Virus record (IMG/VR): IMGVR_UViG_3300028920_001945
Span: 64,001 to 115,760 of that record
DNA from: a virus
Lineage: Duplodnaviria; Heunggongvirae; Uroviricota; Caudoviricetes
DNA length: 51,760 bases
Direction: 5' to 3' (one strand)
Under the pieces are notes generated by a model, which was given only the letters and a program-made list of their open reading frames with translations, did not search any database and had not been told where the DNA came from. Made by a program: the position numbers and the translations under genes. Numbering within the stretch: the stretch's first letter is position 1; each line of letters starts with the position of its first letter. Positions 1 through 24,976 of this stretch are shown here, piece by piece.

Positions 1-2
1 GT

Positions 3-326
3 AGTGTTCAAAGTAACCCATATTATAAAAACGTATATATAGGAGCTAATGTTCCTAAGAATATAGAAATAGCTGGATCTAAGGCTTGTTTATTTACTAA
101 GAAGTGGGGAGATTCAGATATAATGGGATTTAAGGATGGAGAAAATTGTGTTTTATTTGAAAATAATAATGAAATAGAAGATAAATTGAAATATTATTTA
201 GATAATAAAGATGTTTTAGAAAAAATAATAGATAAGGGGTATCAACTAGTTCACAATAAACATACTCCAGAAATACATATAAAACAATATATAAAAGATT
301 TAAAGGAGATATTAAAGAGGATATGA
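3..326 (+). CDS. Glycosyltransferase, CgeB/YkvP-like C-terminal part (5' partial)
   Basis: Frame is open from base 3: ...NVPKNIEIAGSKACLFT...GFKDGENCVLF..NEIEDKLKYYLDN...IIDKGYQLVHNKHT, typical GT-B C-terminal domain. Confidence 0.75.
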   Translation, partial: SVQSNPYYKNVYIGANVPKNIEIAGSKACLFTKKWGDSDIMGFKDGENCVLFENNNEIEDKLKYYLDNKDVLEKIIDKGYQLVHNKHTPEIHIKQYIKDLKEILKRI

Positions 327-1222
327 GTAAGATATTATTTACAATAAGAGGTAAACCAAGAACACTTGGAATGGGTGATATTGCAATGTTAGCATGTCCA
401 GTATATTTTAGAGGAAGATCATTAGGATATGATGAAGTATATTTGGAATGGCCAAATATAGTTACGGGTCCTAAATATAAAAAAGTTAGATGTCCAAAGA
501 AAACTATAATTCCAGTTAACTTTATAAAGAGAAGTGATATTAGGAAAAAGGATTTCGATGAGATATTAGACCTAAGAGATAAACATGTCTTATTTAATTT
601 TTACCCAGGTATTGATTTAGATACTGAAGGAAAAAAAACTAAAAGTCTATATGGAATATATAATTTTAATAATCTTTATTTATATTCAACTGGAATAAAA
701 CCAGTATTCAAGGTAGATAAGGATAAACTTGAAAAACCATACATAATAATACATCATAGAAATTATAAGACAGCCCAATTTAGAAATTCTAAAGAAGAAA
801 CAACAAAAATTGTTTTAGATCTATTAAGAGATACACTAGGAGATAAATATGAGATATGGAAAATGGGAGAACCCACTTCATTTGATGAAGAATTTGATAG
901 AGTAACAACCATTAATTATAATGATGTAAACGAATATTTCAAAACTATTAACAATTCTAGTATGGTATTAGGAAATGGTCAATCAGGAATTACTGCTACC
1001 GGTAATTATTTTGATATACCGGTTGTAAGATTGGATGTTAATTTTGAATCCAAGATATCAAGAAATTTATTATCAGTTTATCATTGGTCAGCATTATGTG
1101 GAGTAGGTTATACTTGTTATGATTGGGCTGGACCTGAAAAAAATAGAGTATACTATGTAAATAAATTTGGTGAATTAGAATTAGAAAATTTGGAGAAGTT
1201 TGTGATAAAATGGCTGCTATAG
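323..1222 (+). CDS. Putative GT9-like (GT-B) glycosyltransferase, paralog of 3096-4019
   Basis: GMGDI near N-terminus; PYIIIHHR..RN; SSMVLGNGQSG..A..FDIPVV pattern resembles heptosyltransferase-like proteins. Confidence 0.5.
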   Translation: MSKILFTIRGKPRTLGMGDIAMLACPVYFRGRSLGYDEVYLEWPNIVTGPKYKKVRCPKKTIIPVNFIKRSDIRKKDFDEILDLRDKHVLFNFYPGIDLDTEGKKTKSLYGIYNFNNLYLYSTGIKPVFKVDKDKLEKPYIIIHHRNYKTAQFRNSKEETTKIVLDLLRDTLGDKYEIWKMGEPTSFDEEFDRVTTINYNDVNEYFKTINNSSMVLGNGQSGITATGNYFDIPVVRLDVNFESKISRNLLSVYHWSALCGVGYTCYDWAGPEKNRVYYVNKFGELELENLEKFVIKWLL

Positions 1223-2283
1223 ATAAATATAAGATGACTGGAACTAAGTTACTTTGGCATATGGATAGAGTAAATGCTTGGAAAAATGGAGAAAGAGTAG
1301 CTCCAATCCATATATCATTAGGTATAGCTAATTATTGTAATTCTAAATGTAAATTTTGTTATGGAACATTCTTTGGTAAAGACAATAAAAATAAAAAATA
1401 TATGAGTCTAGATACAATTAAAAATCTATTAGATGATTGCCAAGAGATAGGAGTAAAGTCCATAGTTATTATGGGAGAAGGAGAAAATACAATAAGTCCT
1501 CATTTCTATGATATGCTAGAATATTCAAAAAATAATTCAGTAGATTTATCTCTAGCAACTAACTTAATAGATATAAAAGAAGATAAGATAGAACTGATGC
1601 TCCAAACACTACAATGGATAAGAATAAGTATATGTGGTAGTAATAGAGATATATACAAAACAATTCATCAAGTAGATAAATATGATCAAGTAATAGATAA
1701 CATAAAAAAACTAGTTAAAATTAAAAAGGAAAATGGATATAATACCACTATAGGACTTCAAGTGGTAGTTATAGAGGACAATTTTGATGACCTAGTTAAT
1801 ATTGCTAAATTAGGAAAAGAATTAGGTGTAGATTATTGTGTAATGAAACCTTGTTCAGATACTAACGATGGAAAGTTAAATATAAATGTTAGTAGATATA
1901 AAGACGTTCATGAAATCTTAAAAGATGCTGAATCAGAGAATAATGATAATTATGATGTAATAGTTAAATGGAATAAATTTAATTATAGGGAGACTACTTT
2001 TAAAAACTGTTATGGGACTGTATTCAGTATAGGAATAGATGCTTTAGGAAATGTAGGTCCATGTGGACATCTTCTAGGATATAAAAAAGAATATTTTAAT
2101 ATGGGAAATATGAATAATAATAGATTCAAGGATATAGTGAAGTCCAATAAATATTGGACAGTCCAGAATAGAGTACATAAATTAAATGTAAGGAAAGAAT
2201 GTGAAACTTACTGTCTTCATTGTTATATGAATCAATTTTTAGAGGAATACTTACATCCCCCGGAGCATATTAATTATGTCTAA
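1210..2283 (+). CDS. Radical SAM protein with SPASM/twitch-type C-terminal domain
   Basis: CNSKCKFC (CxxxCxxC), GEGE motif, C-terminal CYG..IDALGNVGPC..GNM..CETYCLHC. Confidence 0.9.
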   Translation: MAAIDKYKMTGTKLLWHMDRVNAWKNGERVAPIHISLGIANYCNSKCKFCYGTFFGKDNKNKKYMSLDTIKNLLDDCQEIGVKSIVIMGEGENTISPHFYDMLEYSKNNSVDLSLATNLIDIKEDKIELMLQTLQWIRISICGSNRDIYKTIHQVDKYDQVIDNIKKLVKIKKENGYNTTIGLQVVVIEDNFDDLVNIAKLGKELGVDYCVMKPCSDTNDGKLNINVSRYKDVHEILKDAESENNDNYDVIVKWNKFNYRETTFKNCYGTVFSIGIDALGNVGPCGHLLGYKKEYFNMGNMNNNRFKDIVKSNKYWTVQNRVHKLNVRKECETYCLHCYMNQFLEEYLHPPEHINYV

Positions 2284-3115
2284 AGTAGTAATATTGGGAG
2301 CTTATGGTATGGTAGGAGCTGCCTTTAAAAAAGAAAACCCAGATGCTATAGCATTGGATAAACACGACTGTGATATAACAATACCAGAATCCATTTCTAG
2401 AATGATAGAAATATATGAACCTGATATAATAATAAATTCAGCAGTAATATATAATTATGATGCTTGCAAAAAAAATCCAGAATTAGCCTATAGACCAAAT
2501 TCAATAGGTCCATTAAATTTAGCCATACAATGTAGAGATAATGACATAACATTGGTTCAATTAAGTACAGTCAATGTCTTTAAAGGAGATACTTCAACTC
2601 CATATACAGAGGATTCTATTCCAAATCCTATGAGTATATATGGAAAATCTAAATATATAGCAGAACTATATGTAGGGAGTATATGTGATAAATTTTATAT
2701 AATAAGAATGCCAACAATGTTTGGACATGTAGAAAATCATAAAAATATAGGATTCACTGAAAAAATGCTAATACGCATGAGAGATAATAAGGAATTAAGA
2801 GTAGCGGATGATAAAGTAGAATCTATTTCTCATACTAGAGATATAGCTAAGGAAGTATATAGAATCATTGAAGATAAATTACCATATGGAATATATCATA
2901 TATCTAATGAAGGTTGTATGAGTTATTATGAATTTATAGTTGAAATTGTAAAGCAGTTAGGAAAGTCTATAAATGTTGAGGGAGTTAGTAGAAAGGTTTT
3001 TCCAGATTGGGAAACAAAACCAGGGTATGCATCATTGAGCTCTATTAAAATAAAACCTCTTAGAAATTGGAAGAAAGCATTAAAGGATTATTTGAATGAG
3101 CAAAATATTATTTAG
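2276..3115 (+). CDS. rfbD: dTDP-4-dehydrorhamnose reductase-like SDR (RmlD family)
   Basis: ILGAYGMVG, CDIT, IIINSA, STVNVFKG, PNPMSIYGKSK (YxxxK), GIYHISNEG. Confidence 0.88.
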   Translation: MSKVVILGAYGMVGAAFKKENPDAIALDKHDCDITIPESISRMIEIYEPDIIINSAVIYNYDACKKNPELAYRPNSIGPLNLAIQCRDNDITLVQLSTVNVFKGDTSTPYTEDSIPNPMSIYGKSKYIAELYVGSICDKFYIIRMPTMFGHVENHKNIGFTEKMLIRMRDNKELRVADDKVESISHTRDIAKEVYRIIEDKLPYGIYHISNEGCMSYYEFIVEIVKQLGKSINVEGVSRKVFPDWETKPGYASLSSIKIKPLRNWKKALKDYLNEQNII

Positions 3116-4019
3116 AGGATTTGATCTCTTACCCAAGAGAGTGGTAGGCTATGGAGATATTTTTATATACTCATTAGCTTGCTATCTAAAAGGTAAAAAA
3201 AGAAATTACGATAATATAGATATAATATTTCCAAGATTTGGCTATGATAATAGATGGATTATACCTAAAAGAGACCAAGTATGGCAAAAGACGGAATTTC
3301 TTCCATGGACTTGGATTAGTAGAGAATCAAAAATAAATGAAAATGATTACGATTGTATAGTCTATACAAATAAAAAGAATTCATTTTATAAAGGATATCC
3401 AGGATTAAATAGCAGTGGAAGATTTTTTTATGCTTATCTAGACATATATTATAAACTAACTGGAAAGGAGCCAGTATTAGATATACCTAGAGAAAAACAA
3501 AATAAACCTTATATCTTATTACAATACAGAGAAGTAAATGGAAGAAAAAGTGAAATTAGAAATACAAATATAGAAAGACTCCTAAAATTATATGATGTTA
3601 TTAAGGAAAAATATGGGAATAGATTTTTATATTATAAAATAGGAGAACCATCTCCAATAGATGATAAATTTGATAAGAGTATACCATTAATGTATGGGAA
3701 TATAGATGGATTTTCTAAGTTAGTTAGAAATAGCTCATTAATGATAAGTGGGCACTCTGGTCCTCAGAATTTTTCTTTATGTTTTCCAGATATACCCACA
3801 ATTAGATTAGATATAAGAAATGAATGGAATCCAAGAGATCCATTCCATTGGAAAAATCAAGTTGGAAGTTTATCGAGTATTATACCATTTCATCCATTAT
3901 GGTGCAATGATAGAATATTTGATATAGACTTTAATGATGATATAAAAAAGGAAAGAATATTTAGTTTTTTAGATGAACAAAAATTATATGGAGGACAATA
4001 TGATAAGAACAAAGTGTGA
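3096..4019 (+). CDS. Putative GT9-like glycosyltransferase, paralog of 323-1222
   Basis: Same MSKILF start, GYGDI, KPYILLQYR..RN, KIGEP, RNSSLMISGHSGP..IPTIRLD. Confidence 0.5.
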   Translation: MSKILFRGFDLLPKRVVGYGDIFIYSLACYLKGKKRNYDNIDIIFPRFGYDNRWIIPKRDQVWQKTEFLPWTWISRESKINENDYDCIVYTNKKNSFYKGYPGLNSSGRFFYAYLDIYYKLTGKEPVLDIPREKQNKPYILLQYREVNGRKSEIRNTNIERLLKLYDVIKEKYGNRFLYYKIGEPSPIDDKFDKSIPLMYGNIDGFSKLVRNSSLMISGHSGPQNFSLCFPDIPTIRLDIRNEWNPRDPFHWKNQVGSLSSIIPFHPLWCNDRIFDIDFNDDIKKERIFSFLDEQKLYGGQYDKNKV

Positions 4020-5133
4020 AGTTTGTGGAAATAAAGTAGGTAAGTTAACAATACCTTTAGATGATTATCCCTTAACGGAGACATATCTAAAGAGAAAATC
4101 TAATACCAAGTTTGATCAGAGATTTGTTTTTTGTGAGAATTGTGGTCATGGACAACTAGAAAATATACTGCCTCAGGAAGATTTGTATAGTCATAAATAT
4201 AAATTTAGAACTTCAAAGAGTTCTGGAGCTGATAAGGGAAGTGGTTTTGTATATGATTACATAATAAAGAATAAATTATATGAAAAATATAAGACTGTTA
4301 TAGATATTGGATGTAATGATGGGTATCTATTATATAGATTAGAACCTTACTTTGATAATTTAATAGGAGTAGATCCAGTATTGGATGAAAATTGGAAGGA
4401 TAATAAAATAACCCTTTATGCAGATTTTATAGAACATGTTGATTTAAAATTAGAGGACTGTTTAGTTATAACCAGTCAAGTTCTAGAACATTTAGAATAT
4501 CCCAAGATGTTTATTAAGAAGTTATTAGAAAAATCTAATAATAATACTAGATTTATATTTGCATTCCCTTGTCTGGATATGTTAGTTAAAGATTATAGAT
4601 TTGATCAGATATTTCATCATCATCAAAATTATTTCTCTAAGGCATCCATTGGAGAACTATTAAATATATTAGGAGCAAAAATAACTAATACTAAGATTAA
4701 TCCCCATTATTGGGGTACCCTATTGGTAGATTTTCATAAGCATAATAAACCCAATAATAAATTTGAGAAAATAGGTAGAGAGACAGTTATTGATAGCTAT
4801 AATGAATTCATACATTTATGCAACAACGCAAGAGATTATCTTGATAATCATAAGGATATTAAGATATACGGTTATGGAGCTAATCTACAGTTACCTGTAC
4901 TTGGTTATTTTATAGATAATCTAGATGAGAGATTAGAATATGTATTAGATGATGATATAGAAAAAGATGGTTTGTATGTACCGACTATGAAAATAAAGAT
5001 AAAATACACTCCATCAGTTAATTTAAAGGGTAAACAAATAATAATAACGGCAAGTAATTTCTCTAAGGCCATCCTAAAAAATATATTAGAAAAGGATATA
5101 GAGAATGTTTATTGTATATTTAATAAGATATGA
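4000..5133 (+). CDS. NDP-hexose C-methyltransferase family protein
   Basis: N-terminal Zn site CEVCG...CENCGHGQL; VIDIGCNDGYLL; HHHQNYFS; C-terminal IYGYGA domain. Start moved to ATG 4000 behind GGAGG. Confidence 0.85.
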   Translation: MIRTKCEVCGNKVGKLTIPLDDYPLTETYLKRKSNTKFDQRFVFCENCGHGQLENILPQEDLYSHKYKFRTSKSSGADKGSGFVYDYIIKNKLYEKYKTVIDIGCNDGYLLYRLEPYFDNLIGVDPVLDENWKDNKITLYADFIEHVDLKLEDCLVITSQVLEHLEYPKMFIKKLLEKSNNNTRFIFAFPCLDMLVKDYRFDQIFHHHQNYFSKASIGELLNILGAKITNTKINPHYWGTLLVDFHKHNKPNNKFEKIGRETVIDSYNEFIHLCNNARDYLDNHKDIKIYGYGANLQLPVLGYFIDNLDERLEYVLDDDIEKDGLYVPTMKIKIKYTPSVNLKGKQIIITASNFSKAILKNILEKDIENVYCIFNKI

Positions 5134-5957
5134 ATTCAGATATATTCTACATAATAGCTCCCGGACCTACATTAAATGATTTAACAGAAGAGGAATGGAA
5201 ATTTTTAGAACATCAAAATACTATATCTATATCCTGTACACCCTTTACTGGTAAATACTTTAAATATTACATGACATATGAATCAACTAAAAGTACAAAT
5301 AGATTTTTAGAAATGATGGCAGAAGATAGATACTTTAATACTACTCTATTACTAGGTATAGATAAAAATATAAGATATGCATTGGAATTAGGATTTAAAA
5401 ACATATATGGTATATCAAAGGGAAGAGGTAGAAGCTTTAATGGTAAACTTTGGTTTGATGGGGAAGATAAACCTCCAGAGAAATTAAAAAATTGCATTGC
5501 ACAAAAATTAAGTGAACCTCTATTTAGATATAGGGGATCACTAGCAGCAACCATTAATGTAGCATTAATCTTGGGTGCTAAAGAGATTAGATTGATTGGA
5601 GTTGAGCTAAATAATATGAAACATTTCTATGAAGGAACAGAAGAAAGATGGACAAAAGACCCAAAGAGAATAGAAGAGATTAGAGATTATCATAAAGATT
5701 ATTTGGAGACAATTGAAGTTAAGAAGAGACGACAGGTTGAAAGAATGAAAGATTTTGATCCAAATATCATGCATACAACTGCCATGAAATATCCTAGTAA
5801 ACTATGGGGTAATAAAAATCTTATTGGTATGCCAAAAGTTGTAGAATGGATGGATAAAGAATTAAGAGAAATGGGACATAGAGGTATATATATAACAAAT
5901 AAAAAAAGTATCTTATATAAAGATAATTTAATAGAATATAAAAAGGTGATGGAATGA
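5130..5957 (+). CDS. Maf/DUF115- or Cst(GT42)-like putative nonulosonate transferase
   Basis: YIIAPGPTL, GSLAATINVALILGAKEIRLIGVEL..HFY motifs; lies directly upstream of neuB-neuA. Confidence 0.6.
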   Translation: MNSDIFYIIAPGPTLNDLTEEEWKFLEHQNTISISCTPFTGKYFKYYMTYESTKSTNRFLEMMAEDRYFNTTLLLGIDKNIRYALELGFKNIYGISKGRGRSFNGKLWFDGEDKPPEKLKNCIAQKLSEPLFRYRGSLAATINVALILGAKEIRLIGVELNNMKHFYEGTEERWTKDPKRIEEIRDYHKDYLETIEVKKRRQVERMKDFDPNIMHTTAMKYPSKLWGNKNLIGMPKVVEWMDKELREMGHRGIYITNKKSILYKDNLIEYKKVME

Positions 5958-6790
5958 GTAAAGAAATATATTTTACTGGAGAAATAGGCATTAATCATAA
6001 TGGAGACATAAAACTAGCAAAAGAACTTATTAAAATGGCTAAGGATTGTGGTTGTGATGCTGTAAAATTCCAGAAGAGAACTATAGATAAAGTATATAAT
6101 AAAGAATTTTTAGATAGCTATAGAGAATCTCCTTGGGGAAAAACCCAAAGAGCTCAGAAAATAGCCCTAGAATTTGGTAAAAGAGAATTTGATGAAATTG
6201 ATAATTATTGTAGAGAATTGGATATAGATTGGTATGCTTCAGCTTGGGATGAGGATAGTCAAGTGTTCTTAGAACAATATGACTTGAAATACAATAAAAT
6301 AGCATCTCCAATGTTAACTCACAAGGCACTATTAGAACATGTAGCAAATGAAGAAAAACCCACCTTTATATCCACAGGAATGTCTACATACAATGAAATA
6401 GATGATGCCATCAATATATTTAGGTCCTATAAATGTCCATACGTATTAATGCATTGTGTTAGTATATATCCATGTCCTCCAGAACACCTTAATCTAAATA
6501 TGATAAAAACTTTAAAGAATAGATATGATTGTGATATAGGATACTCTGGACACTCTCAAGGTATATTGGATACAACTATAGCAGTAGCATTTGGAGCTAG
6601 ATATCTAGAGAAGCATATAACATTAAATAGAGCAATGTATGGTTCTGATCAGTCAGCATCTCTAGAAAGAAAAGGTCTTCAATATTCTATCAGAAATGCT
6701 AGGGTAATTAATAAAATGTTAGGAGATGGAAAAAAGAAAGTTCTATCAAATGAAGAAAAAAATAAAATTAAATTGAGATATTGGGAATGA
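5954..6790 (+). CDS. neuB: N-acetylneuraminate/nonulosonate synthase (short form, no C-terminal SAF domain)
   Basis: EIGINHNGD, DAVKFQKR, KIASP, ISTGMS, MHCVSIYP, GYSGHS, EKHITLNR. Confidence 0.95.
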   Translation: MSKEIYFTGEIGINHNGDIKLAKELIKMAKDCGCDAVKFQKRTIDKVYNKEFLDSYRESPWGKTQRAQKIALEFGKREFDEIDNYCRELDIDWYASAWDEDSQVFLEQYDLKYNKIASPMLTHKALLEHVANEEKPTFISTGMSTYNEIDDAINIFRSYKCPYVLMHCVSIYPCPPEHLNLNMIKTLKNRYDCDIGYSGHSQGILDTTIAVAFGARYLEKHITLNRAMYGSDQSASLERKGLQYSIRNARVINKMLGDGKKKVLSNEEKNKIKLRYWE

Positions 6791-7449
6791 GAATTATTTG
6801 TATTATACCCGCTAGAGGAGGTTCTACTAGAATTAAGGATAAGAATATAGTGGACCTTGGAGGACACCCGTTAATAGCCTGGACTATAAGAGATGCACTA
6901 GAATCTACCTTAATAGATAGAGTTATTGTATCCACTGATAGTAAAAAAATAAAAGATATTTCTTTAAAATATGGAGCAGAAGTTATAGATAGGCCAATCC
7001 ATCTTTCTGAAGATAATTCAAAAATGGAAGATGCAATAATTTATACAATAGATAAGATAAATGAAAGTCCGGATATAATAGTTATATTACAATGTACAAC
7101 TCCCTTTAGAAATAAAGGAGACATAGATAAGGGTATAATCAAATTAGGTCAGGATAATGCTGACTCATTATTTTTTGCCACAGAATTTGATAAATTTATA
7201 TGGACTAAAGAACATTATAGTATTAATTATGATTTTAAAAGTAGACCTAGAACTCAAGATAAAAAATGGGAGATAGTGGAATTGGGTAATTATATAATAA
7301 AACCAGAAGTACTATATAAACTTAATAATAGACTAGGTGGTAAGATAACTCATTTATTAGTAGATAAAATATCAGAAATAGATATAGACAATCAATATGA
7401 TTTAGCTTTAGCTAGATTATTGGTAGAGAAGTGTGGAGTGATAAAATGA
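6787..7449 (+). CDS. neuA: CMP-nonulosonate synthetase (acylneuraminate cytidylyltransferase)
   Basis: IIPARGGSTRIKDKNI, VIVSTDS, LQCTTPFR, EIDID; ATG 6787 overlaps the neuB stop. Confidence 0.95.
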   Translation: MRIICIIPARGGSTRIKDKNIVDLGGHPLIAWTIRDALESTLIDRVIVSTDSKKIKDISLKYGAEVIDRPIHLSEDNSKMEDAIIYTIDKINESPDIIVILQCTTPFRNKGDIDKGIIKLGQDNADSLFFATEFDKFIWTKEHYSINYDFKSRPRTQDKKWEIVELGNYIIKPEVLYKLNNRLGGKITHLLVDKISEIDIDNQYDLALARLLVEKCGVIK

Positions 7450-7892
7450 AATTACATTTAGGATGCGGATTAGACGCTAAAGAAGGATATATTAATATAG
7501 ATAAAATAGGCTCTTATGGAGTTGATTTAGTTTTAGATGTTGGTAAAGAAGAATTCCCTTATGATGATAGTTCAATAGATGAAGTTGTGGCAACACACTT
7601 TATAGAACATCTAGATGGAGAGGAAGTAGTTCATCTAATGGATGAATTATATAGAATTTGTAAGAATGATGCAATAATATTATTTACTGCACCTTACTTC
7701 ACGTCACCTACTAGTTGCAGACCCTTTCATAAACAGATGATAAGTGAAACTTACTTTGCAGATTTTGAAGTTCTAGATCCAAATAAGTGTAAGAGTTTGG
7801 ACCACAGATTTTATTTCCATATAAATGCATTCAAGGAATTAGATGATGAAGAGAATCTAATAGTTATATTTAAATTAAGAGTAGTTAAATGA
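7446..7892 (+). CDS. Class I SAM-dependent methyltransferase (short)
   Basis: MKLHLGCG...GYINID...PYDDSSIDEVVATHFIEHL; GGAGTGA SD upstream of ATG 7446. Confidence 0.85.
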   Translation: MKLHLGCGLDAKEGYINIDKIGSYGVDLVLDVGKEEFPYDDSSIDEVVATHFIEHLDGEEVVHLMDELYRICKNDAIILFTAPYFTSPTSCRPFHKQMISETYFADFEVLDPNKCKSLDHRFYFHINAFKELDDEENLIVIFKLRVVK

Positions 7893-9552: not shown

Positions 9553-9637
9553 AGATTGGGGATATGAGGAGTGGATAGTTAATAACGAATTATATTGCTT
9601 CAAGAAGATATTTATTAAAAAGGGATATAGTGGATAA
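9536..9637 (+). pseudogene. 33-codon 5' fragment of a cupin (sugar isomerase-like) gene
   Basis: MQKLIKDWGYEEWIVNNELYCFKKIFIKKGYSG*; aligns without gaps (11/27 identical) to the cupin N-terminus inside ORF 9640-10752; not in the ORF track. Confidence 0.75.
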
Positions 9638-9639
9638 TA

Positions 9640-11327: not shown

Positions 11328-12214
11328 ATATAGGATATTGTTTACAAGGACAGCCTCTATCTCAAACTGCTATCCAATTAGAGATGAAGGAATTATCTAG
11401 TAGAGGACATCAAGTTGATGTTATAGATATAGAAAAGCCTTTAAATGGAAAAATTATAAAGAATTGTGATTTTATTATGTGTCACTTTGCCTATCAAGGT
11501 ATTTGGGCAAAGCGATGGGGAATACCATATGCAGTATATCCACATGCATATGACATATGGAAGGACAACGGATATGCATTACATAATGCTATATCTAGTA
11601 AAAACTGCAAGTGGGTGGCATGTGAATCTAAATTCCATAAACAGAAATTTGAGGAATGGGAAATAGAGAAGCCTCTACATCTTGTATATGGAGCTATAGA
11701 TGTAGATTTCTTTAAGAGAAAGAGTAAAAAGTTAGGAGATAAGGTAGTTGCAGGTGGAAGATTAAAACCAAAGAAAGGTCTAGAATATGCTGTTATGGGA
11801 TATCACAATATTCATATCTTCGGTAAAGGACAAGATATGTTAGATAAATTAAAATCCATAAATCCAAACCTCACTTACCATGGAGTAATTAGTAAGGAAG
11901 AGTACAGAGATTTATTAGAAGATGCTAGATTATTTGTAAGTCCAAATATTATAGCAAAGGATGGAGATATGGATGGAATACCCGCTACAATAATGGAAGC
12001 TTTACTCATGGAATTACAAGTATTAACAACACCAATATCTGGAATACCAGAACTTTCTCCTCATGTTATATTAGAAGAACCAGAAACAATAGCTAGTGGA
12101 CAGGTAACAATACCAAATAAAAGAAATATTAAGGGTAGAGATTACATAAGAAAAAATAATAGTCCAAAAGTTGTTGTTGATAGAATAATGGATGGTATAG
12201 AGAGATACGTATGA
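11324..12214 (+). CDS. GT4-family glycosyltransferase
   Basis: HAYDIW, GRLKPKKG, DGDMDGIPATIMEAL, TTPISGIPEL. Confidence 0.9.
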   Translation: MNIGYCLQGQPLSQTAIQLEMKELSSRGHQVDVIDIEKPLNGKIIKNCDFIMCHFAYQGIWAKRWGIPYAVYPHAYDIWKDNGYALHNAISSKNCKWVACESKFHKQKFEEWEIEKPLHLVYGAIDVDFFKRKSKKLGDKVVAGGRLKPKKGLEYAVMGYHNIHIFGKGQDMLDKLKSINPNLTYHGVISKEEYRDLLEDARLFVSPNIIAKDGDMDGIPATIMEALLMELQVLTTPISGIPELSPHVILEEPETIASGQVTIPNKRNIKGRDYIRKNNSPKVVVDRIMDGIERYV

Positions 12215-13038
12215 TAGTTATAACCATAGATGGAGTGAACTATGAAACTGCTACAAATCTATTGTCAGATTTATTTAAAGTTCAATCCATGACAAAAATT
12301 AGATGTGATGTAAGACCTTGGTCAGATAGTCCAGATAAAGGACAACCTACTATGTTGGGTTTATGTTGCATGTGGACTGGAGAAAGAATAAGAAATTTTG
12401 ATAGAAACATGCATGCTAGAGTTAATCCTAAATATAATGAGAATTGGGAATTAAATTTTATAAATAAAAAGGGTGAACCATTAGATTTGATATTTGATCA
12501 TTTTGATAATACTAAACTATTTATTACCCAACAAGGTGCAAATCCTTATTATAATAATGAGCAGTATTTTAAACATTTTGTTAATATAAGAAATACTACT
12601 TTATTACCATCCGAAGAACTTAGTATATTTCCAGAATTCTATAATAAAGATTATGATTTATTGTGGATACATTCTGGTATAGTTAAGATGGGAGTATTTC
12701 AACATGGTCCCTATGAGCAGGGTAGGATGCCAGCTTGCATACCCTTTGATGAAATTAGAAAGAATAGAGAACTAAAGAGAAAGGTACATTATTTTGCAGT
12801 TAATAGATATAAATTTGTCATCCAGTATTGTTTTGAACCATATACTGATGATATAATAGTTATAAGTTCTGATCACGGTTCAGGATTAAATGATTTCTTC
12901 GATCCCAAGGAAGTAGATGAAATATTTGTTATAGTCAATAGAGATGTTGATCTATCAGATATTAAATATCAATGGGATATGAAGAAACTTCTATTAAGAT
13001 TAAAGGAAATGGAAGATAAAGAGAAATGCAAACAATAA
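12211..13038 (+). CDS. Alkaline phosphatase superfamily protein (NPP/phosphodiesterase-like)
   Basis: ITIDG at N-terminus, T-x8-TG nucleophile spacing (TMLGLCCMWTG), ISSDHG. Confidence 0.7.
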   Translation: MIVITIDGVNYETATNLLSDLFKVQSMTKIRCDVRPWSDSPDKGQPTMLGLCCMWTGERIRNFDRNMHARVNPKYNENWELNFINKKGEPLDLIFDHFDNTKLFITQQGANPYYNNEQYFKHFVNIRNTTLLPSEELSIFPEFYNKDYDLLWIHSGIVKMGVFQHGPYEQGRMPACIPFDEIRKNRELKRKVHYFAVNRYKFVIQYCFEPYTDDIIVISSDHGSGLNDFFDPKEVDEIFVIVNRDVDLSDIKYQWDMKKLLLRLKEMEDKEKCKQ

Positions 13039-13769
13039 TACTAGCAGGTGGCTGGGGAACACGTCTAGGAAAGAATTTTGAAGATATCCCTAAACCAATG
13101 GTAAAAATAGGAGATAAACCAATTCTATGGCACATTATGAAAACATATTCTTATTATGGTTATAATGATTTCATAATCTGTCTAGGGGTTAAGGGAGATT
13201 TTATAAAGGACTATTTTTTTCATTACAATCTATATAATTCAGATGATGTTACAATCTATACACACTATGATCACTCAATTCCAGAACAAATAGAAAATTG
13301 GAAGGTTAAATTATGCAATACTGGTATTGATACTCCAAAGGGTGGAAGAATAAAAAAAATAGAAAAATATTTAGATGATATAAATATGATAACTTATGGA
13401 GATTCTCTTTGTGATGTAGATATAAATAAATTAATTGAATTCCATAAAGCTAATGGTAAAATGGTTACTCTTACAGCTGTTCATCCTCCAGCAAGATTTG
13501 GAGAAATAGTTGATAATAAATTCTCAGAAAAACCTCAGACATCTTCAGGATATATAAATGGAGGATATATGGTATTTAACAAAGAACTATTAAACTTTTT
13601 AGATGAAAATTCTGAATTTGAAAGTGATATATTAGAGAAGTTATCTAAGAGAGATGAACTAATGATATATCAACATGAAGGGAAGTGGGAATGCATGGAT
13701 CATGAAAGAGATGTAACCCATTTAAATAAATTATGGAATGAAGATAAAGCATTCTGGAAGTCATGGTGA
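13026..13769 (+). CDS. rfbF: Glucose-1-phosphate cytidylyltransferase
   Basis: IILAGGWGTRL, PKPMVKIGDKPILWHIMK, TGIDTPKGGRIK, HEGKWECMD. Confidence 0.95.
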   Translation: MQTIILAGGWGTRLGKNFEDIPKPMVKIGDKPILWHIMKTYSYYGYNDFIICLGVKGDFIKDYFFHYNLYNSDDVTIYTHYDHSIPEQIENWKVKLCNTGIDTPKGGRIKKIEKYLDDINMITYGDSLCDVDINKLIEFHKANGKMVTLTAVHPPARFGEIVDNKFSEKPQTSSGYINGGYMVFNKELLNFLDENSEFESDILEKLSKRDELMIYQHEGKWECMDHERDVTHLNKLWNEDKAFWKSW

Positions 13770-14809
13770 TGGACAATATATTTAAAGATAAACTAGTATT
13801 AGTTACAGGACACACTGGATTTAAGGGTTCATGGTTATCCATATGGTTAAATGAACTTGGTGCCAATGTGATAGGATATGGCCTAGAACCATATACTGAT
13901 AGAGATAATTTCGTTGTAACTGATTTAGATAGTAGAATAACTAGTGTAATAGGAGATATTCGAGATTATGATAAATTAAGGGATACCTTTGAAGCATATA
14001 AGCCTGAAATAGTATTCCATTTAGCGGCACAATCATTAGTATTACCTTCCTATGAAAAGCCAAAGGAGACATTTGATGTTAATATAGGAGGGACAGTAAA
14101 TGTCTTCGAGGCTATTCGTGAGATAGGTGGTGTTAAGGCTATAGTTAATATAACTAGTGATAAGTGCTATGAGAATAAGGAATGGATATGGGGATATAGA
14201 GAGAATGACCGTATGGGAGGATTAGACCCATATAGTTGTAGTAAGGGATGCTCTGAATTAATAACTAATTCCTATAGAAATTCTTTTTTTAATGATATAC
14301 CTCTCTCTTCTGTAAGAGCAGGAAATGTTATAGGGGGAGGAGATTGGAATCAGAATAGGATAATACCTGATTGTATACGTTTTTTAGAGAATAATAAGGA
14401 TATAGAGGTTAGAAATCCACAAGCCACAAGACCTTGGCAATTTGTTTTAGAACCCTTGTATGGTTATTTACTTCTAGCATCTAAGATGTATAAGAATAAA
14501 AATAGATATACAGGTGCATGGAACTTTGGCCCAGATCCAAATAACTCTTTATCAGTAGAAGATCTAGTTAATAAGGTAATACATTATTGGGGCTCAGGAA
14601 ACTGGAAACAACCCTTCTATGAAGATAAGCTCCATGAAGCCATGAATTTGAATCTTGATATAAATAAGGCAATTAATTATTTAGGATGGAAACCAGTGAT
14701 GAATATAGAAGATACCATAAGAGAAACAGTGGCATGGTATAAAAATCCAGATGTAGATTATCAATTTGATGTTGATCAGATAAAATATTATGATAGACTT
14801 AAAAAATAA
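13763..14809 (+). CDS. rfbG: CDP-glucose 4,6-dehydratase
   Basis: VTGHTGFKGSWL, FHLAAQSLV, TSDKCYEN, DPYSCSK, RAGNVIGGGDW, TRPWQFVLEPL. Confidence 0.96.
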   Translation: MVMDNIFKDKLVLVTGHTGFKGSWLSIWLNELGANVIGYGLEPYTDRDNFVVTDLDSRITSVIGDIRDYDKLRDTFEAYKPEIVFHLAAQSLVLPSYEKPKETFDVNIGGTVNVFEAIREIGGVKAIVNITSDKCYENKEWIWGYRENDRMGGLDPYSCSKGCSELITNSYRNSFFNDIPLSSVRAGNVIGGGDWNQNRIIPDCIRFLENNKDIEVRNPQATRPWQFVLEPLYGYLLLASKMYKNKNRYTGAWNFGPDPNNSLSVEDLVNKVIHYWGSGNWKQPFYEDKLHEAMNLNLDINKAINYLGWKPVMNIEDTIRETVAWYKNPDVDYQFDVDQIKYYDRLKK

Positions 14810-15734
14810 AACCATCTTAATTACGGGAGGTACAGGATTTATAGGTTCTCATCTAGTAAATAAGTTAGTTTCAATGGGTTGTGATATTACTCTAATAGAA
14901 AGAAATATTAAAAATCTATGGAGGCTAGATGATAAAAATTCAGTTATGATATATAACATTAATCCAATGGACTACGAAGAAGTAAGAAATGTAATCAATA
15001 AAATAAGACCAGATATAATATTCCATCTATTAGCTAATGTTAATCTAGATAGAGATATAAACAATATAGAAGATCAATTTTATAATTTCATGATTACTAA
15101 AAACATACTCACTGCCTTAGATAATATAGATTATGAATTATTCATAAATACTGGAACTTGTGAGGAATATGGAGATATTCAAGCTCCATTCCATGAGTAT
15201 GATAGAGAAAGTCCAGTCTCTCCTTATTCACTTTCAAAGGTATCCATTACTTATATGTGTGATATGATGAGAAGAATATATAATAAGCCCATAATTACTG
15301 TAAGACCATTCTTAACATATGGACCAAAGCATGTTAATGATATGCTGATACCTAGTTTAATAAGAGCTGGAGTAACTGAAGATTCCAATATAAAATTAAC
15401 TCCAGGAGAACAGACAAGAGATTTAATCTATGTTGAGGATGTAGTGGATGCTTATATACAGTTAGCTGAGAATGCAGAGAAGATTAAAGATAAGGGAATA
15501 TTTAACATCGGTAGTGGAAAAGAAATTAGAATAGATGAAATAGTTGAAATAATAGAATCAAAATTAAATACAAAATTTAATGTCAATAAAAAATATTATA
15601 GAAAGGGAGAAAATAAACACTTTTACTGTTCTATAGAAAAAATAAAAAAAGAGATTAATTGGAATCCTAAATGGAATCTAAGTAATGGATTAGATGAAAC
15701 AATAAGATGGTGGAGAGAATATGAAGAGAGATGA
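14790..15734 (+). CDS. NAD-dependent epimerase/reductase (candidate CDP-3,6-dideoxyhexose synthase, RfbJ/RfbS-like)
   Basis: ITGGTGFIGSHL, SPYSLSK (YxxxK), RPFLTYGP, QTRDLIYVED; lies between rfbG and rfbH. Confidence 0.8.
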   Translation: MIDLKNKTILITGGTGFIGSHLVNKLVSMGCDITLIERNIKNLWRLDDKNSVMIYNINPMDYEEVRNVINKIRPDIIFHLLANVNLDRDINNIEDQFYNFMITKNILTALDNIDYELFINTGTCEEYGDIQAPFHEYDRESPVSPYSLSKVSITYMCDMMRRIYNKPIITVRPFLTYGPKHVNDMLIPSLIRAGVTEDSNIKLTPGEQTRDLIYVEDVVDAYIQLAENAEKIKDKGIFNIGSGKEIRIDEIVEIIESKLNTKFNVNKKYYRKGENKHFYCSIEKIKKEINWNPKWNLSNGLDETIRWWREYEER

Positions 15735-16941
15735 CCTAATACATTATTCAGGTAAGATCTATGATGACCACGAGATTTCTAATCTTATGGATGCCTGCAA
15801 GGAATTCTGGTTAACTGAGGGTAAATATACAAAACAATTTGAGAAAGGACTAGCTGATTATCTAGGAGCCTATAAATGTATTGTAACTAATTCTGGTTCA
15901 TCAGCCAATCTATTAGCCGTATCAGCTTTAAGCTCCCATAAATTAGGAGATAGAAGATTAATTCCAGGTGATGAAATTATAACGGTAGCAGCAGGATTTC
16001 CAACTACGGTGGCTCCAATAGTACAAAATAGTTATATACCAGTCTTTGTTGATGTAGAACTTGATACTTATAATATAGATTGCTCTAAGATAGAGGATGC
16101 TATATCTAATAGAACTAAAGCAATCATTATAGCCCATACAATGGGTAACCCATTTAATCTAGAGAAGGTTAAGGAGATATGCAATAAATATAATCTCTGG
16201 TTAATAGAGGATAATTGTGATGCACTAGGCTCTAAGTATAATGATAAATTTACTGGAACATTTGGAGATCTAGGAACATGCTCATTCTTCCCAGCTCATC
16301 ACATAACAACTGGAGAAGGTGGAGCAGTTATAGTTAACAACAAAGAATTATATAGTATAGTTAAATCCTTTAAGAACTGGGGAAGAGATTGCATATGTGA
16401 ACCTGGAAAGGATAATACTTGTGGAAAAAGATTCTCCAAGCAAATGGGAACTCTTCCATATGGATATGACCATAAATATATATATTCTCATCTAGGATAT
16501 AATCTTAAGATGACTGACATGCAAGCTGCAATAGGATGTGCTCAGTTAGAAAAGTTAAAGAAATTTAATGAGATACGTAGAAGAAATTACAAATTATTAT
16601 ATGAAGGACTAAAACCATTAGAGGATAAGCTAATATTACCTAAACCTCAAGATAATTCAGATCCTAGTTGGTTTGCTTTTGTAATAACGGTAAGAGATGG
16701 AATTAATAGAAATGAATTAGCTAAGTATCTAGAAGACTCCAATATACAGACTAGATTTTTATTTGCTGGCAATATAACTAGGCATCCAGCATTAGATAAT
16801 GTGAAATATCGAATATCAGGAGATTTAGTTAATTCTGATAGAGTTATGAATGATACATTCCTTATAGGAGTATACCCAGGAATAACAGAAGATATGGTAT
16901 GTTATATGATAGAAAAAATTAAGGAATATTTTTATGAATAA
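15721..16941 (+). CDS. rfbH: CDP-4-keto-6-deoxyglucose 3-dehydratase (E1)
   Basis: NSGSSANLLA, EDNCDALGS, SFFPAHHITTGEGG (His in place of the Lys of aminotransferases), WGRDC.C..G.DNTCG, YDHKYIYSHLGYNLK. Confidence 0.95.
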   Translation: MKRDDLIHYSGKIYDDHEISNLMDACKEFWLTEGKYTKQFEKGLADYLGAYKCIVTNSGSSANLLAVSALSSHKLGDRRLIPGDEIITVAAGFPTTVAPIVQNSYIPVFVDVELDTYNIDCSKIEDAISNRTKAIIIAHTMGNPFNLEKVKEICNKYNLWLIEDNCDALGSKYNDKFTGTFGDLGTCSFFPAHHITTGEGGAVIVNNKELYSIVKSFKNWGRDCICEPGKDNTCGKRFSKQMGTLPYGYDHKYIYSHLGYNLKMTDMQAAIGCAQLEKLKKFNEIRRRNYKLLYEGLKPLEDKLILPKPQDNSDPSWFAFVITVRDGINRNELAKYLEDSNIQTRFLFAGNITRHPALDNVKYRISGDLVNSDRVMNDTFLIGVYPGITEDMVCYMIEKIKEYFYE

Positions 16942-18847
16942 ACCCACAATAGGAATAATAGGATTTGGAATGGTTGGAAGAGCTATTCAATATGGATTTG
17001 CTCAAACAGCTGATTTTAGAATATATGATATAGATCCAACTATATCAGAAAATACATTCAAAGAAACCATAGAAGAGAGTGATTTTATATTTATATGTGT
17101 ACCTACACCAGCTGATTATAAGACAGGTGAATGTGATACTAGTATATTAGAGGAAACTATAGAGAAGTCAAGAGAATATATGACTCCTAAAAAAATAATA
17201 ATAATTAAATCCACTATTCCCCCTGGAACAACAAAAAATATAAAAGAACGAATACCTCATTTAAGGATAGTATTTAATCCAGAATTCTTAACTGCTAGAA
17301 CTTCTAGACTAGATTTCATAAACACATCTAGAATAGTCTTAGGTGGGGAAGCTGAAGATCTTTGTGAGATTGAAGGACTATATAGATTAAAATTTAAAAA
17401 TACTCCAATATACTGGACAGATTCAACTACTGCTGAAATGGTTAAGTATGCAGCAAATTGTTTCTTTGCTAGTAAGGTTTCACTATTTAACGAATATTTC
17501 GGGATATGCCGAAAGTTAGACATAGACTTTGATGAAATGATGAAGATGTTAATGGCTGATGGTAGAATAGGTAATTCTCATATTGATGTACCAGGACATG
17601 ATGGAGAGTTTGGATTTGGTGGGTTATGTTTAGTTAAAGGAACTAACATACTAACCATTAATGGTTTAAAGAAAATACAGGATATTAAAGTTGGAGATAT
17701 TCTTTATGATAATATAGATAAAACAGAAGTAACAAATGTATCCTCAAGAGTTGTAAATAAAACTATAAAGTTAAATGGAAGGGGAAGAACACTAGAAGGT
17801 AGTGAAGATCACATCCATTTTATATATAAAGATGGAAAACTAGAAGAGAAATTATTAAAAAATACAGATATTGGAGATTATATCTTCATACCAAAGTTAG
17901 ACTATCCTTCAAGTCAAACTGATATTGTTATAGTTGGAGATGCTCCAAATAAATATATGAAATATTGGCATAGATTGATAAAGAATAATAAGAAAATTGC
18001 AAGAATGATAGGACTATATCTTTCAGAAGGATGTTGTTTTGAAGAAAAGAAAGGAGTATTTACTACCACTTGGTATATAGGACAGAAAGATTCTTATCTC
18101 GCTGATGAATTAATTGACACATTAAAATCAATTGGTTTAAATCCATATAAATCCGAGCATAATTACGAAGGAACATTTGGAATGTCAAATACATATAAGA
18201 TAAGAGTTCGTTCTAGATGGTTATATGAATTTCTTAAAATTATAAAAGCTGGACATAATTGTTATGATAAAAATATCTCTGTAGAATTTATCCCAGAATC
18301 AGCTAAATATATAATTGGTGGTTGGTTAGATGGAGATGGGAATATATATAAAGGAACAATTGAAGGTTATTCTGAAAGTAAAGATTTAATATCATCAATA
18401 GATACAATGTTACTTAATTTGGGAATTAACTCCAGTATAGCAAAGGATGGACATTGTATAAGAATATCTATGAAAGAAGATGTTAAAGAAGTTTGTTCAT
18501 GGACTGCTAGATTAAAATTCAATGAAGAAAATTATAAAAGAAAAATATCATACAAATCACCAAATATGAGAAAAGTAAGTGGTGGATGGATTATACCAAT
18601 AAAAGAAATAGAAGTTATAGAAGATAAACAAAAGGTATATACTATAGAAACATCTTCTCATAGATATATAGCCAATACTATGTTAACTCATAATTGCTTT
18701 CCAAAGGATTTAAGAGGTATGATACATAGAGCTAAAGAACTTGGAGTTGACCCTAAAGTGTTGGAAGCTGTTTGGAAAAAGAATTTAGAAGTGAGAAAAA
18801 AAAGAGATTGGGAAAGTATCGATGGTGCAGTCTCAAATAAAGCCTAA
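16934..18847 (+). CDS. ugd: UDP-glucose/GDP-mannose 6-dehydrogenase family protein with intein (281 aa after splicing)
   Basis: GFGMVG, ICVPTP, KSTIPPG, FNPEFL, EMVKYAANCFFASK, DGRIG, GFGGL[intein]CFPKD. Confidence 0.93.
   Translation: MNKPTIGIIGFGMVGRAIQYGFAQTADFRIYDIDPTISENTFKETIEESDFIFICVPTPADYKTGECDTSILEETIEKSREYMTPKKIIIIKSTIPPGTTKNIKERIPHLRIVFNPEFLTARTSRLDFINTSRIVLGGEAEDLCEIEGLYRLKFKNTPIYWTDSTTAEMVKYAANCFFASKVSLFNEYFGICRKLDIDFDEMMKMLMADGRIGNSHIDVPGHDGEFGFGGLCLVKGTNILTINGLKKIQDIKVGDILYDNIDKTEVTNVSSRVVNKTIKLNGRGRTLEGSEDHIHFIYKDGKLEEKLLKNTDIGDYIFIPKLDYPSSQTDIVIVGDAPNKYMKYWHRLIKNNKKIARMIGLYLSEGCCFEEKKGVFTTTWYIGQKDSYLADELIDTLKSIGLNPYKSEHNYEGTFGMSNTYKIRVRSRWLYEFLKIIKAGHNCYDKNISVEFIPESAKYIIGGWLDGDGNIYKGTIEGYSESKDLISSIDTMLLNLGINSSIAKDGHCIRISMKEDVKEVCSWTARLKFNEENYKRKISYKSPNMRKVSGGWIIPIKEIEVIEDKQKVYTIETSSHRYIANTMLTHNCFPKDLRGMIHRAKELGVDPKVLEAVWKKNLEVRKKRDWESIDGAVSNKA
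17627..18694 (+). mobile_element. Intein (356 aa) with LAGLIDADG homing endonuclease
   Basis: Starts CLVKGT, ends MLTHN followed by Cys; block B GSEDH; endonuclease motifs IGLYLSEG and IGGWLDGDG. Confidence 0.95.
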
Positions 18848-18944
18848 AAATCAATTTAAAGGCTATTTAGAGCCACGTAGAGCCACTTTAATCTATCATT
18901 AGTACCAATTACTATAAAATTCTGTTTTTGGTTATATAAGGCTG

Positions 18945-20300: not shown

Positions 20301-20305
20301 TTTAT

Positions 20306-21825: not shown

Positions 21826-21837
21826 TTAATTACCTCA

Positions 21838-23978: not shown

Positions 23979-23984
23979 ATTTAT

Positions 23985-24962: not shown

Positions 24963-24976
24963 ACTTTATCATTCTC

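Follow-up and report, generated by a model that had tools for sequence, protein, structure and literature searches.

A 36-kb block of soluble glycan-biosynthesis genes inside the genome of a tailed virus

Introduction

Why would a tailed virus give nearly a third of its contig to sugar chemistry, and where would the resulting glycan be placed? The question is raised by a 51,760-base stretch of DNA (the window), the final part of a single 115,760-bp virus contig (IMG/VR record IMGVR_UViG_3300028920_001945), whose first 18,847 positions an earlier note had described, from the letters alone, as a glycan biosynthesis and transfer cluster. Here we show that these genes are part of a larger glycan block that lies inside the virus genome and lacks membrane parts. 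As a tentative reading, which we favour, the block is a virus-encoded soluble glycan factory that would decorate the virus's own particle proteins; this acceptor is what we infer from the evidence below. Unless a contig position is given, coordinates refer to the window. All genes of the block are on the plus strand, and those of the virion side on the minus strand.

Results

The glycan block lies within viral DNA

The plus strand carries almost every gene of the contig from position 1 to 82,847 (window position 18847), and minus-strand genes run from contig position 82,945 to the contig end. Within window positions 1-18847 we found 21 consecutive plus-strand open reading frames (ORFs), with overlaps of 4-47 nt at 19 of the 20 gene junctions and an 87-nt gap at the remaining one, in agreement with the coupled cluster proposed in the earlier note. 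The note's expectation that the cluster goes on past the window edge was also borne out: positions 1-18847 are the right half of a block of 43 co-directional, mostly overlapping genes, with 17.6 kb more upstream of the window. The whole block measures 36,472 bp (contig 46,376-82,847), or 31% of the 115.8-kb contig, and all 43 of its tightly overlapping reading frames are open. The orientation had been misread, however. Rather than standing head-to-head, the glycan block and the virion module converge tail-to-tail: the plus-strand genes end at 18847 and the minus-strand genes at 18945, with an intergenic junction (18848-18944) between them. A sigma-70 promoter scan at this 18.9-kb junction gave 15 promoter-like sites versus 16.5 expected, no excess over chance, and a hairpin-terminator scan there gave no terminators. 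No common promoter motif was seen by eye in 36 upstream regions.

The block has viral neighbours at either end. To its left are a family-B DNA polymerase (PolB), a primase-like protein, a RadA-like ATPase and ribonucleotide reductase; to its right are SNase, HNH endonucleases, fibre-like proteins, tail proteins and a 2101-aa tape-measure protein. The G+C content (GC) at third codon positions (GC3) is 0.18-0.21 in all four segments, and relative synonymous codon usage (RSCU) correlates with r 0.98-0.99 across the replication, glycan and virion modules. Against every control locus r was at most 0.95, with 0.94-0.95 for an equally AT-rich bacterial locus. HNH homing-endonuclease paralogues are present in both the glycan and the virion module. 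The gene order from the cytidylyltransferase through RfbH, Ugd, SNase, HNH and two more genes recurs in a 45-kb ENA contig, and the 18.9-kb junction is also spanned by a 3.7-kb JGI contig of a different variant (L095). From RfbH through the intergenic spacer, which is itself identical in L095 and there too runs into an SNase homologue, L095 differs from the window by 1 mismatch in 3,100 bases. Right of 18,945, its SNase gene is 27% divergent (73% identity) and the next gene 6.6% divergent, and it is without the HNH gene (window 19302-19836). Because the drop in identity centres on this mobile gene, it suggests endonuclease homing with co-conversion of flanking DNA.

Could the block be cellular DNA misassembled to viral DNA, or host DNA beside a provirus end? 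Its GC is ~5 points below that of the virion module, RfbF, RfbG and RfbH resemble bacterial O-antigen genes (47-61% identity), and the identity of L095 shifts sharply exactly at 18,945. The GC gap, however, is confined to codon positions 1 and 2, with GC3 and RSCU uniform, and the L095 shift is centred on the mobile HNH gene as homing with co-conversion predicts. Moreover, the Ugd-to-SNase junction occurs in the two other assemblies, and in a distant phage contig (L092) homologues of Ugd (46% identical) and SNase (39% identical) are again adjacent. Searching one genome for each of 185,579 prokaryotic species, we found the best cellular RfbH to be 61% identical, with the top matches scattered over Chloroflexota, Cyanobacteria, Bacteroidota and other phyla. 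No more than 10 of the 43 block genes were common to any of 80 RfbH-selected cellular loci, at 22-57% identity; neither search brought up a near-identical or syntenic cellular locus. A cellular origin is hardly credible in view of these results. The earlier note had called for a check that the contig is viral across 18.9 kb, and the flanking modules, codon usage and two further assemblies agree that it is; they gave no sign of a chimeric junction or a provirus boundary.

The block encodes several routes to activated sugars

One run of genes (13026-16941), identified with NCBIfam equivalog models and Pfam, comprises RfbF, RfbG, a short-chain dehydrogenase/reductase (SDR) and RfbH. RfbF, the putative glucose-1-phosphate cytidylyltransferase (13026-13769), matches TIGR02623 over its full length with 276 bits (curated cut-off 300), and RfbG, the CDP-glucose 4,6-dehydratase (13763-14809), matches TIGR02622 with 460 bits (cut-off 278). 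RfbH (E1), the CDP-4-keto-6-deoxyglucose 3-dehydrase (15721-16941), matches NF011936 with 681 bits (cut-off 423), and the SDR, a reductase/epimerase recognised by Pfam (14790-15734), sits between RfbG and RfbH. By family membership, these enzymes would yield a CDP-3,6-dideoxyhexose. The E3 reductase (RfbI/AscD), a flavoprotein resembling ferredoxin-NADP reductase, was not found, with no FAD_binding_6, NAD_binding_1 or Fer2 match among the scanned block ORFs and the larger ORFs elsewhere; small ORFs were only partly scanned.

A split transketolase-like pair at contig 59,135-60,366, i.e. 4.9-3.6 kb before the window start, may act on the same sugar. Both subunits have homologues (34-42% identical) 1-4 kb from rfbH in five bacterial rfbFGH loci of different phyla, and because of this neighbourhood we consider branching or modification of the CDP-keto-sugar a more likely role for the pair than supply of sedoheptulose-7-phosphate. 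The second viral subunit has 159 aa and only the pyrimidine-binding domain, compared to ~300-320 aa in cellular counterparts. Possibly, this thiamine diphosphate-dependent pair and a C-methyltransferase (see below) render the dideoxyhexose C-methylated or carbon-branched.

A second route is suggested by a NeuB-family ulosonic-acid synthase (5954-6790; PF03102, E 7e-70; TIGR03569, 242 bits with a cut-off of 400), a short form without the SAF domain, whose best PDB match is a 290-aa NeuB (6ncs, E 5e-41). It is followed by a NeuA/PseF-like CMP-ulosonate cytidylyltransferase (6781-7449; PF02348, E 9e-29; TIGR03584, 117 bits, under the cut-off). Since the block's ulosonate enzymes attained no NeuB, PseI or PseF equivalog cut-off in NCBIfam, we describe the predicted product broadly, as a CMP-nonulosonic or similar ulosonic acid. 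A set of enzymes for the NeuB precursor (NeuC, or PseB/C/H/G, or LegB/C/H/G) was not found among the 43 genes; a related contig (L090) carries an Epimerase_2 gene. With the DUF115-like protein encoded by the preceding ORF (5130-5957), which overlaps the NeuB gene by 4 nt, synthase and cytidylyltransferase would form a make-activate-transfer triad. An RmlD-like NDP-4-keto-6-deoxyhexose reductase is encoded at 2276-3115 (PF04321, E 6e-57; TIGR01214, 187 bits with a cut-off of 224).

In 5'->3' order along the contig, the upstream half of the block (contig 46,376 to the window start) begins with an SDR, an unknown ORF and a TylF-like methyltransferase, followed by a permuted GTPase-SIS protein, a GNAT and a GT4 glycosyltransferase (contig 50,280-51,179). 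Next come a sugar-phosphate nucleotidyltransferase, a B12-binding radical S-adenosylmethionine (SAM) enzyme and a second SDR; a GHMP kinase, a GmhA-like SIS protein and a transaldolase/FSA; an unknown ORF, a weakly matched HAD phosphatase and a PfkB kinase. A second SPASM radical SAM enzyme precedes the transketolase-like pair, after which lie a sulfotransferase and a methyltransferase, then a fourth radical SAM enzyme, another methyltransferase and a GT1-like gene that crosses the window edge. Judged by their families, genes of this half fit an NDP-heptose route.

Thus, the precursor enzymes named in the earlier note (RfbF/G/H with a reductase, Ugd, NeuB/NeuA and an RmlD-like protein) stand as family matches, with RfbF under its cut-off. 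Two qualifications apply: the E3 reductase is missing from the set, and Ugd is a short form.

A short Ugd-like dehydrogenase carries an intein at its catalytic cysteine

The last gene of the block (16934-18847) encodes a short Ugd-like NDP-sugar dehydrogenase with a LAGLIDADG intein (PF03721, PF00984, PF14528, PF14890). Its extein has 281 aa, compared to ~390-440 aa for Ugd, and comprises the NAD and central domains, with a GxGxxG motif at residues 10-15 and, after intein removal, the catalytic motif GGL-C-FPKD followed by 50 residues after the catalytic Cys. The C-terminal UDP-sugar-binding domain PF03720 was not detected with Pfam. The designation Ugd in the earlier note therefore holds for the NAD and central domains and the catalytic Cys motif, and has to be amended for the absence of PF03720 and the presence of the intein. 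The intein (356 aa, nt 17627-18694) interrupts the protein at the catalytic cysteine, with junctions GGL/CLVKGT...THN/CFPKD. It has class 1 features (Cys1, a His-Asn end, Cys +1, and the motifs LIGLYLSEG and GWLDGDG) and matches PF14890 and PF14528. We propose from this arrangement that the dehydrogenase would be active only once the intein has been spliced out.

Homologues that also carry an intein (36-53% identical) are present in other glycan clusters, on at least five further large virus-like contigs. They lie beside a PolA replication module (L087, L092), tail genes (L094) or a GT1-tubulin fusion (L090). Based on this distribution, the intein and its host gene appear to circulate among unrelated viruses. 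Many intein-free homologues are likewise without PF03720. We considered the gene as a truncated, broken Ugd and rejected this view, because the short form recurs as a family. As a side observation, the marine virus-like contig L090 encodes, at 19790-21923 (and L091 in the same range), an 801-aa GT1 and tubulin protein at the edge of another large glycan cluster.

Glycosyltransferases and tailoring enzymes

The GT1-like gene at the window edge starts at contig 63,379 and encodes 315 aa; its 3' end occupies 1-326 (ORF 3-326), and PF13524 (Glyco_trans_1_2) matches with E 4e-12 for the fragment and 1e-12 for the whole gene. Pfam also identifies a GT2 glycosyltransferase (8524-9552; PF00535, E 2e-6), for which the membrane-segment scan predicted no membrane segment, and a GT4 (11324-12214; PF13692, PF13439) that is a 40.5% identical paralogue of the GT4 at contig 50,280-51,179. 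Three further proteins, each without a Pfam match, are probably transferases too. The ORF at 3096-4019 encodes a GT9-like protein of the heptosyltransferase fold (Atlas structure match to GT9 clusters, TM 0.62; nearest feature clusters mostly viral). That at 323-1222, a putative GT9-like transferase, has no Pfam or NCBIfam match and is 30% identical to it over 273 aa; the two could transfer heptose. The ORF at 5130-5957 gave no Pfam match at E 0.001, and its Atlas structure matches (TM 0.75 to DUF115 clusters, 0.61-0.67 to MptE-like/WaaZ_KDO_III) make it a candidate CMP-ulosonate transferase. No tblastn match to the DUF115-like and GT9-like ORFs was obtained in cultured phages. The nearest Atlas clusters of these ORFs and of an alkaline-phosphatase-like ORF (see below) are 77-100% viral. 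With GT1-like, GT2 and GT4 enzymes recognised by Pfam, the GT9-like pair and the DUF115/MptE-like protein, the earlier count of at least five glycosyltransferases was correct. The whole block encodes at least eight from five families (GT1-, GT2-, GT4-, GT9-like and DUF115). A lone 430-aa GT1 glycosyltransferase is encoded at contig 26,674-27,966, two genes past PolB and ~36 kb before the window start.

Several tailoring enzymes, as the note had stated, are present in the window by Pfam and NCBIfam. A radical SAM/SPASM enzyme (1210-2283; PF04055, E 1e-18; PF13186, E 1e-7) probably serves in sugar tailoring and has a 29% identical paralogue at contig 58,134-59,177. An NDP-hexose C-methyltransferase-like enzyme is encoded at 3973-5133 (PF08421, PF13489, PF08484), a SAM methyltransferase at 7431-7892 and a TylF-like SAM methyltransferase at 7889-8527 (PF08241/PF05711 for the 7431-8527 pair), and a LicD-family phospho-alcohol transferase at 10728-11327 (PF04991, E 1e-10). 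The block as a whole has four radical-SAM enzymes as well as methyl- and sulfo-transferases.

The ORF at 12211-13038, which had no family match, encodes a soluble enzyme of the alkaline-phosphatase superfamily. Its AF2 model (pLDDT 77.5) matched LtaS and LtaP (phosphoglycerol transferases), sulfatases and EptC with a VIA Z of 10.4, and all 50 of the structure matches listed (Z >= 8.2) were from this superfamily. Because Asp7 and Thr47 are invariant among its few homologues, we prefer a phosphotransferase or phosphodiesterase over a sulfatase, and the model indicates that it is probably one of these. In one case, a homologue adjoins a CTP_transf_like cytidylyltransferase. Together with LicD, this enzyme suggests phospho-alcohol substituents.

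The tailoring set bears a resemblance to natural-product deoxysugar pathways: TylF-like O-methyltransferases, a TylC3-like C-methyltransferase, B12-binding radical SAM, two SPASM types, a sulfotransferase and a GNAT. The block might accordingly make a glycosylated small molecule, such as a secondary metabolite or signal, or modify the viral DNA, and a secondary-metabolite role has been proposed for a second cyanophage cluster (PMC7824862). We consider this improbable. With at least eight transferases, drawn from five families, an oligosaccharide is indicated rather than one or two sugar attachments, and no aglycone-building genes (PKS, NRPS or terpene synthase) were seen in the Pfam and NCBIfam scans of the block. 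As to DNA, known sugar modification in phages takes one to a few genes, and there are no base-hypermodification genes beside the block.

Between the GT2 and LicD genes, a single ORF joins an HNH endonuclease in frame to a small phosphomannose isomerase (PMI)-like cupin (9640-10752; PF01844, cupin match, TIGR01479 C-terminal cupin). A 27-codon remnant of the cupin 5' end (9554-9637, aligning to cupin residues 242-267) sits directly after the GT2 stop codon, upstream of the fusion. The HNH part is 37% identical to a free-standing HNH at 35697-36407. The arrangement looks like an invasion by a homing endonuclease that duplicated part of its target gene.

This invaded cupin, the missing E3 reductase, the Ugd-like gene without a C-terminal domain and the second transketolase-like subunit of half the cellular length could be taken to mean that the block is decaying passenger DNA without a role in infection. 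In contrast, all 43 frames are open and tightly overlapping, codon usage is fully virus-adapted and, being a widespread family, the short Ugd form does not count as a truncation. The intein retains its splice residues and both LAGLIDADG motifs, and the cupin is intact in frame after the HNH insertion. Decay is thus very unlikely to be the explanation.

A soluble pathway and its possible acceptor

A hydrophobicity scan of the 43 proteins revealed no multi-span protein, with two isolated single-window matches in otherwise soluble enzymes. Nor did we find a candidate for Wzx, Wzy, an ABC transporter, an initiating phosphoglycosyltransferase or an oligosaccharyltransferase anywhere on the contig. 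In the mechanism that we propose, the soluble enzymes would draw on host sugar phosphates during infection and make activated sugars in the cytoplasm, namely a CDP-3,6-dideoxyhexose, a CMP-ulosonic acid, an NDP-heptose and the product of the spliced Ugd-like dehydrogenase. Radical-SAM enzymes, O-methyltransferases, the sulfotransferase, LicD and the alkaline-phosphatase-fold phosphotransferase would tailor them, and the at least eight soluble transferases would then assemble the sugars. As acceptors we envisage Ser/Thr-rich proteins of the virus's own tail, fibres or head, which would receive the glycan in the cytoplasm ahead of particle assembly.

We favour a virion target because the machinery is without a membrane step, the DUF115-like protein is akin to Maf enzymes, the block faces the fibre genes, the virion proteins are rich in Ser and Thr, and giant viruses provide a precedent. 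Relatives of DUF115 include Maf enzymes that glycosylate Ser/Thr of flagellin in the cytoplasm. The virion proteins contain 17% Ser+Thr, compared to 9.8% elsewhere, and about twice as many N-x-S/T sites. In the unrelated contig L094, glycan genes including an intein-bearing Ugd follow directly after tail genes on the same strand. Megavirinae and chloroviruses are established cases in which soluble transferases encoded by the virus glycosylate the virion (PMC10117803, PMC9614988).

Several points weigh against particle decoration. The block shares its direction with the replication and early-type genes and runs against the virion genes, an arrangement that does not imply late expression together with the virion proteins. 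Fibres and AT-rich genomes are commonly rich in Ser/Thr, and the sole strongly mucin-like Ser/Thr/Pro stretch among the virion proteins is in the tape-measure protein (29564-29728, residues 1822-1876), a candidate O-glycosylation site. No head genes were recognised on the contig, which is probably incomplete. The RfbH E3 reductase and the NeuB precursor enzymes were missing from the scanned ORFs, so that two of the routes may be host-dependent or incomplete. Finally, cells have peripheral soluble enzymes of the GT4 and GT9 families whose acceptors are lipid-linked, and a host lipid carrier would therefore be compatible with the absence of membrane segments.

This last point leads to a different target, the host surface. 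Viral sugars and peripheral transferases would feed a lipid-linked pathway of the host, whose flippase and oligosaccharyltransferase would display an altered S-layer or envelope glycan, thereby masking receptors and blocking superinfection. The host would then supply the missing initiating and export steps, and the strand shared with early and replication genes fits this scenario as well as the lipid-linked acceptors of the GT4 and GT9 families do. However, proven seroconversion modules are built on membrane proteins (GtrA/B/type-specific Gtr, O-acetyltransferases), and the block has no multi-span protein. Forty-three genes would also be a heavy cost for exclusion by an apparently lytic virus (no integrase match in Pfam scans, with most small ORFs unscanned). 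Remodelling is the usual account for cyanophage P-SSM2, other large phages and the GT-rich regions of pelagimyophages (PMC1079782, PMC7824862, PMC7029224), but it is equally conjectural for the cyanophage clusters. We regard host-surface remodelling as the main rival, less likely than particle decoration, which we retain as the preferred reading. The earlier note had marked the choice between the two as conjecture, and rightly so.

Virion-side genes and the kind of virus

Facing the block are an SNase-like nuclease (18945-19334; PF00565) and the mobile HNH endonuclease (19297-19827; PF01844), which match PHROGs 452/8446 (for the 18945-19827 pair). The tail and fibre module (20306-35191), recognised by tail-protein PHROGs, includes the tape-measure protein (28886-35191; PF10145, E 7e-34; PHROG tape-measure families to E 3e-51) and a lectin-fold fibre protein (20791-21825). 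In the AF2 model of the latter, residues 1-264 form a ConA-like lectin jelly roll with pLDDT >90, with Foldseek matches to ConA-like jelly-roll domains. This domain is 54-71% identical to proteins on viral contigs of 40% and 55% GC with no other common gene and, judging from these sequences, appears unusually conserved and mobile. Four paralogues of 125-162 aa, 38-69% identical (20306-20794, 23511-23978, 24977-25354 and 25347-25733), are interleaved with Ser/Thr-rich fibre genes and may be fibre chaperones or adaptors. Fibre proteins rich in Ser/Thr, and hence candidate acceptors, are encoded at 20791-23511, 23985-24962 and 39429-46795.

Neither Pfam, PHROGs nor a PDB sequence search recognised a capsid, portal or terminase gene in window 35349-51759. 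The contig has no terminal repeat, and its last ORF is cut off by the contig end. Probably, the head module is missing from the contig and the genome is longer than the contig. An Rfam scan found a tRNA-Gln.

Among solved structures, archaeal PolB enzymes come closest to PolB, followed by eukaryotic Pol alpha; the best matches include no phage polymerase. PolB has no close relative among cultured viruses, where Halorubrum tailed virus 25 matches best (25% identity over 35% of the protein). Further archaeal-type replication signs are a weak PF01896 primase match and the RadA/Rad51-like ATPase. An archaeal host is likely on the basis of these similarities.

Searches with virion proteins revealed no close relatives of the virus; near-identical contigs were all from the same virus. 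A near-identity search of the block against 50,697 phage records gave no match. An IMG/VR pattern scan with RfbH detected two unrelated viral contigs (54% and 44% identical) with nothing else in common with this virus, and the same scan with a 775-aa virion protein gave no match. An exact-protein look-up of the SNase found none, probably since the called start codon differs. Contigs with homologues (54-71% identical) of the 344-aa fibre protein were rejected as relatives, as they have no other gene in common with the virus; homologues of a 442-aa tail protein were also rejected, only a distant repeat domain being in common.

Discussion

Soluble glycan islands of tailed viruses are already known as a kind, and this block belongs to them. 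The Prochlorococcus phage P-SSM2 has 24 such genes in two clusters, the major one with 15 genes, and S-SCSM1 and others are similar (PMC1079782, PMC7824862). Jumbo cyanophages have clusters of 15 genes. We encountered no island larger or more self-sufficient than the present block. Like those of P-SSM2, the block has viral flanks, nucleotide-sugar genes and several GT families, with no export machinery found. The 'LPS' (lipopolysaccharide) clusters of T4-like cyanomyoviruses also place soluble epimerases, PfkB kinases, nucleotidyltransferases and several GT families in a tailed-virus genome (PMC1079782, PMC7824862), and RfbH-like genes of cultured cyanophages are 36% identical to RfbH of this virus. 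In contrast to these clusters, 43 genes here form one stretch, with additional CMP-ulosonate, heptose and dideoxyhexose routes, four radical-SAM enzymes and a sulfotransferase. In place of T4 gp43, the virus encodes a PolB of the archaeal/eukaryotic type, and RfbH is the only block protein tied to the cyanomyoviruses.

Hypervariable regions (34-45 kb) of pelagimyophages and cyanomyophages likewise have glycan genes by the tail-fibre module, with rfaE-type heptose and Ugd genes (PMC7029224). There, however, fibre genes are mixed with scattered GT genes, mainly GT8 (PMC7029224), whereas the present block is uninterrupted and on the opposite strand to the fibres. The earlier note's view that so complete a cluster is atypical of a tailed virus needs softening, given the published 15-24-gene cyanophage clusters and GT-rich pelagimyophage regions (PMC1079782, PMC7824862, PMC7029224).

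Cellular O-antigen loci for CDP-3,6-dideoxyhexoses (Salmonella, Yersinia: rfbF, rfbG, rfbH, rfbI, 4-reductase) resemble the block in having RfbF/G/H with an SDR in one run. They differ in that RfbI/AscD, Wzx, Wzy or an initiating transferase was not found here, and RfbH is at most 61% identical. Seroconversion modules of temperate phages (GtrABC, Oac and similar) are marked by a membrane-embedded flippase, bactoprenol transferase or acetyltransferase, unlike this block with no multi-span protein. In mycobacteriophages, capsid and tail proteins are reportedly glycosylated by the phages' own soluble transferases (Freeman et al. 2023, cited in PMC12801897). Those cassettes are said to differ from the present block in having two to a few genes and using host nucleotide sugars.

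The clusters for Megavirinae fibril and chlorovirus capsid glycans share with this block rare bacterial-type sugars made without the host and soluble viral transferases (PMC10117803, PMC9614988). These giant viruses belong to another realm and have eukaryotic hosts, and their glycans are chemically determined. The likeness is thus one of working, not of family, and at this level giant-virus glycosylation is the best working analogy for the mechanism that we favour. Archaeal viruses (Poseidoniales viruses, STIV A197, haloviruses) also carry GT genes in the neighbourhood of tail or capsid genes, and virion glycosylation has been proposed for them (PMC11706807, PMC13465236). These reports concern single or few GT genes, and the archaeal-virus literature searched contained no multi-pathway block of this size (PMC11706807, PMC13465236).

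Glycan islands of tailed viruses have been known from sequence for twenty years, and in the marine-phage papers the acceptor went untested (PMC1079782, PMC7824862, PMC7029224). The present block stands out by its size, the number of independent sugar routes and the archaeal-type replication genes of the virus that carries it; because of these replication genes, we exclude LPS as its target. Independent of the acceptor, the block is a compact source of rare-sugar enzymes, with a possible branched dideoxyhexose route, a short NeuB, a short Ugd-like dehydrogenase and virus-specific GT9-like and DUF115-like transferases.

In its most far-reaching form, which we put forward with less confidence than particle decoration as such, our interpretation is that of an archaeal tailed virus with host-independent cytoplasmic glycosylation on a giant-virus scale, occupying about one-third of its genome. 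It would coat its own particle with a multi-sugar glycan of heptose, branched dideoxyhexose and nonulosonate with methyl, sulfate and phospho substituents, possibly mimicking or masking host glycans, and one of its enzymes would be switched on only by intein splicing at the catalytic cysteine. Should the glycan end up on the particle, archaeal tailed viruses would join giant viruses and a few actinophages as viruses that glycosylate their virions autonomously.

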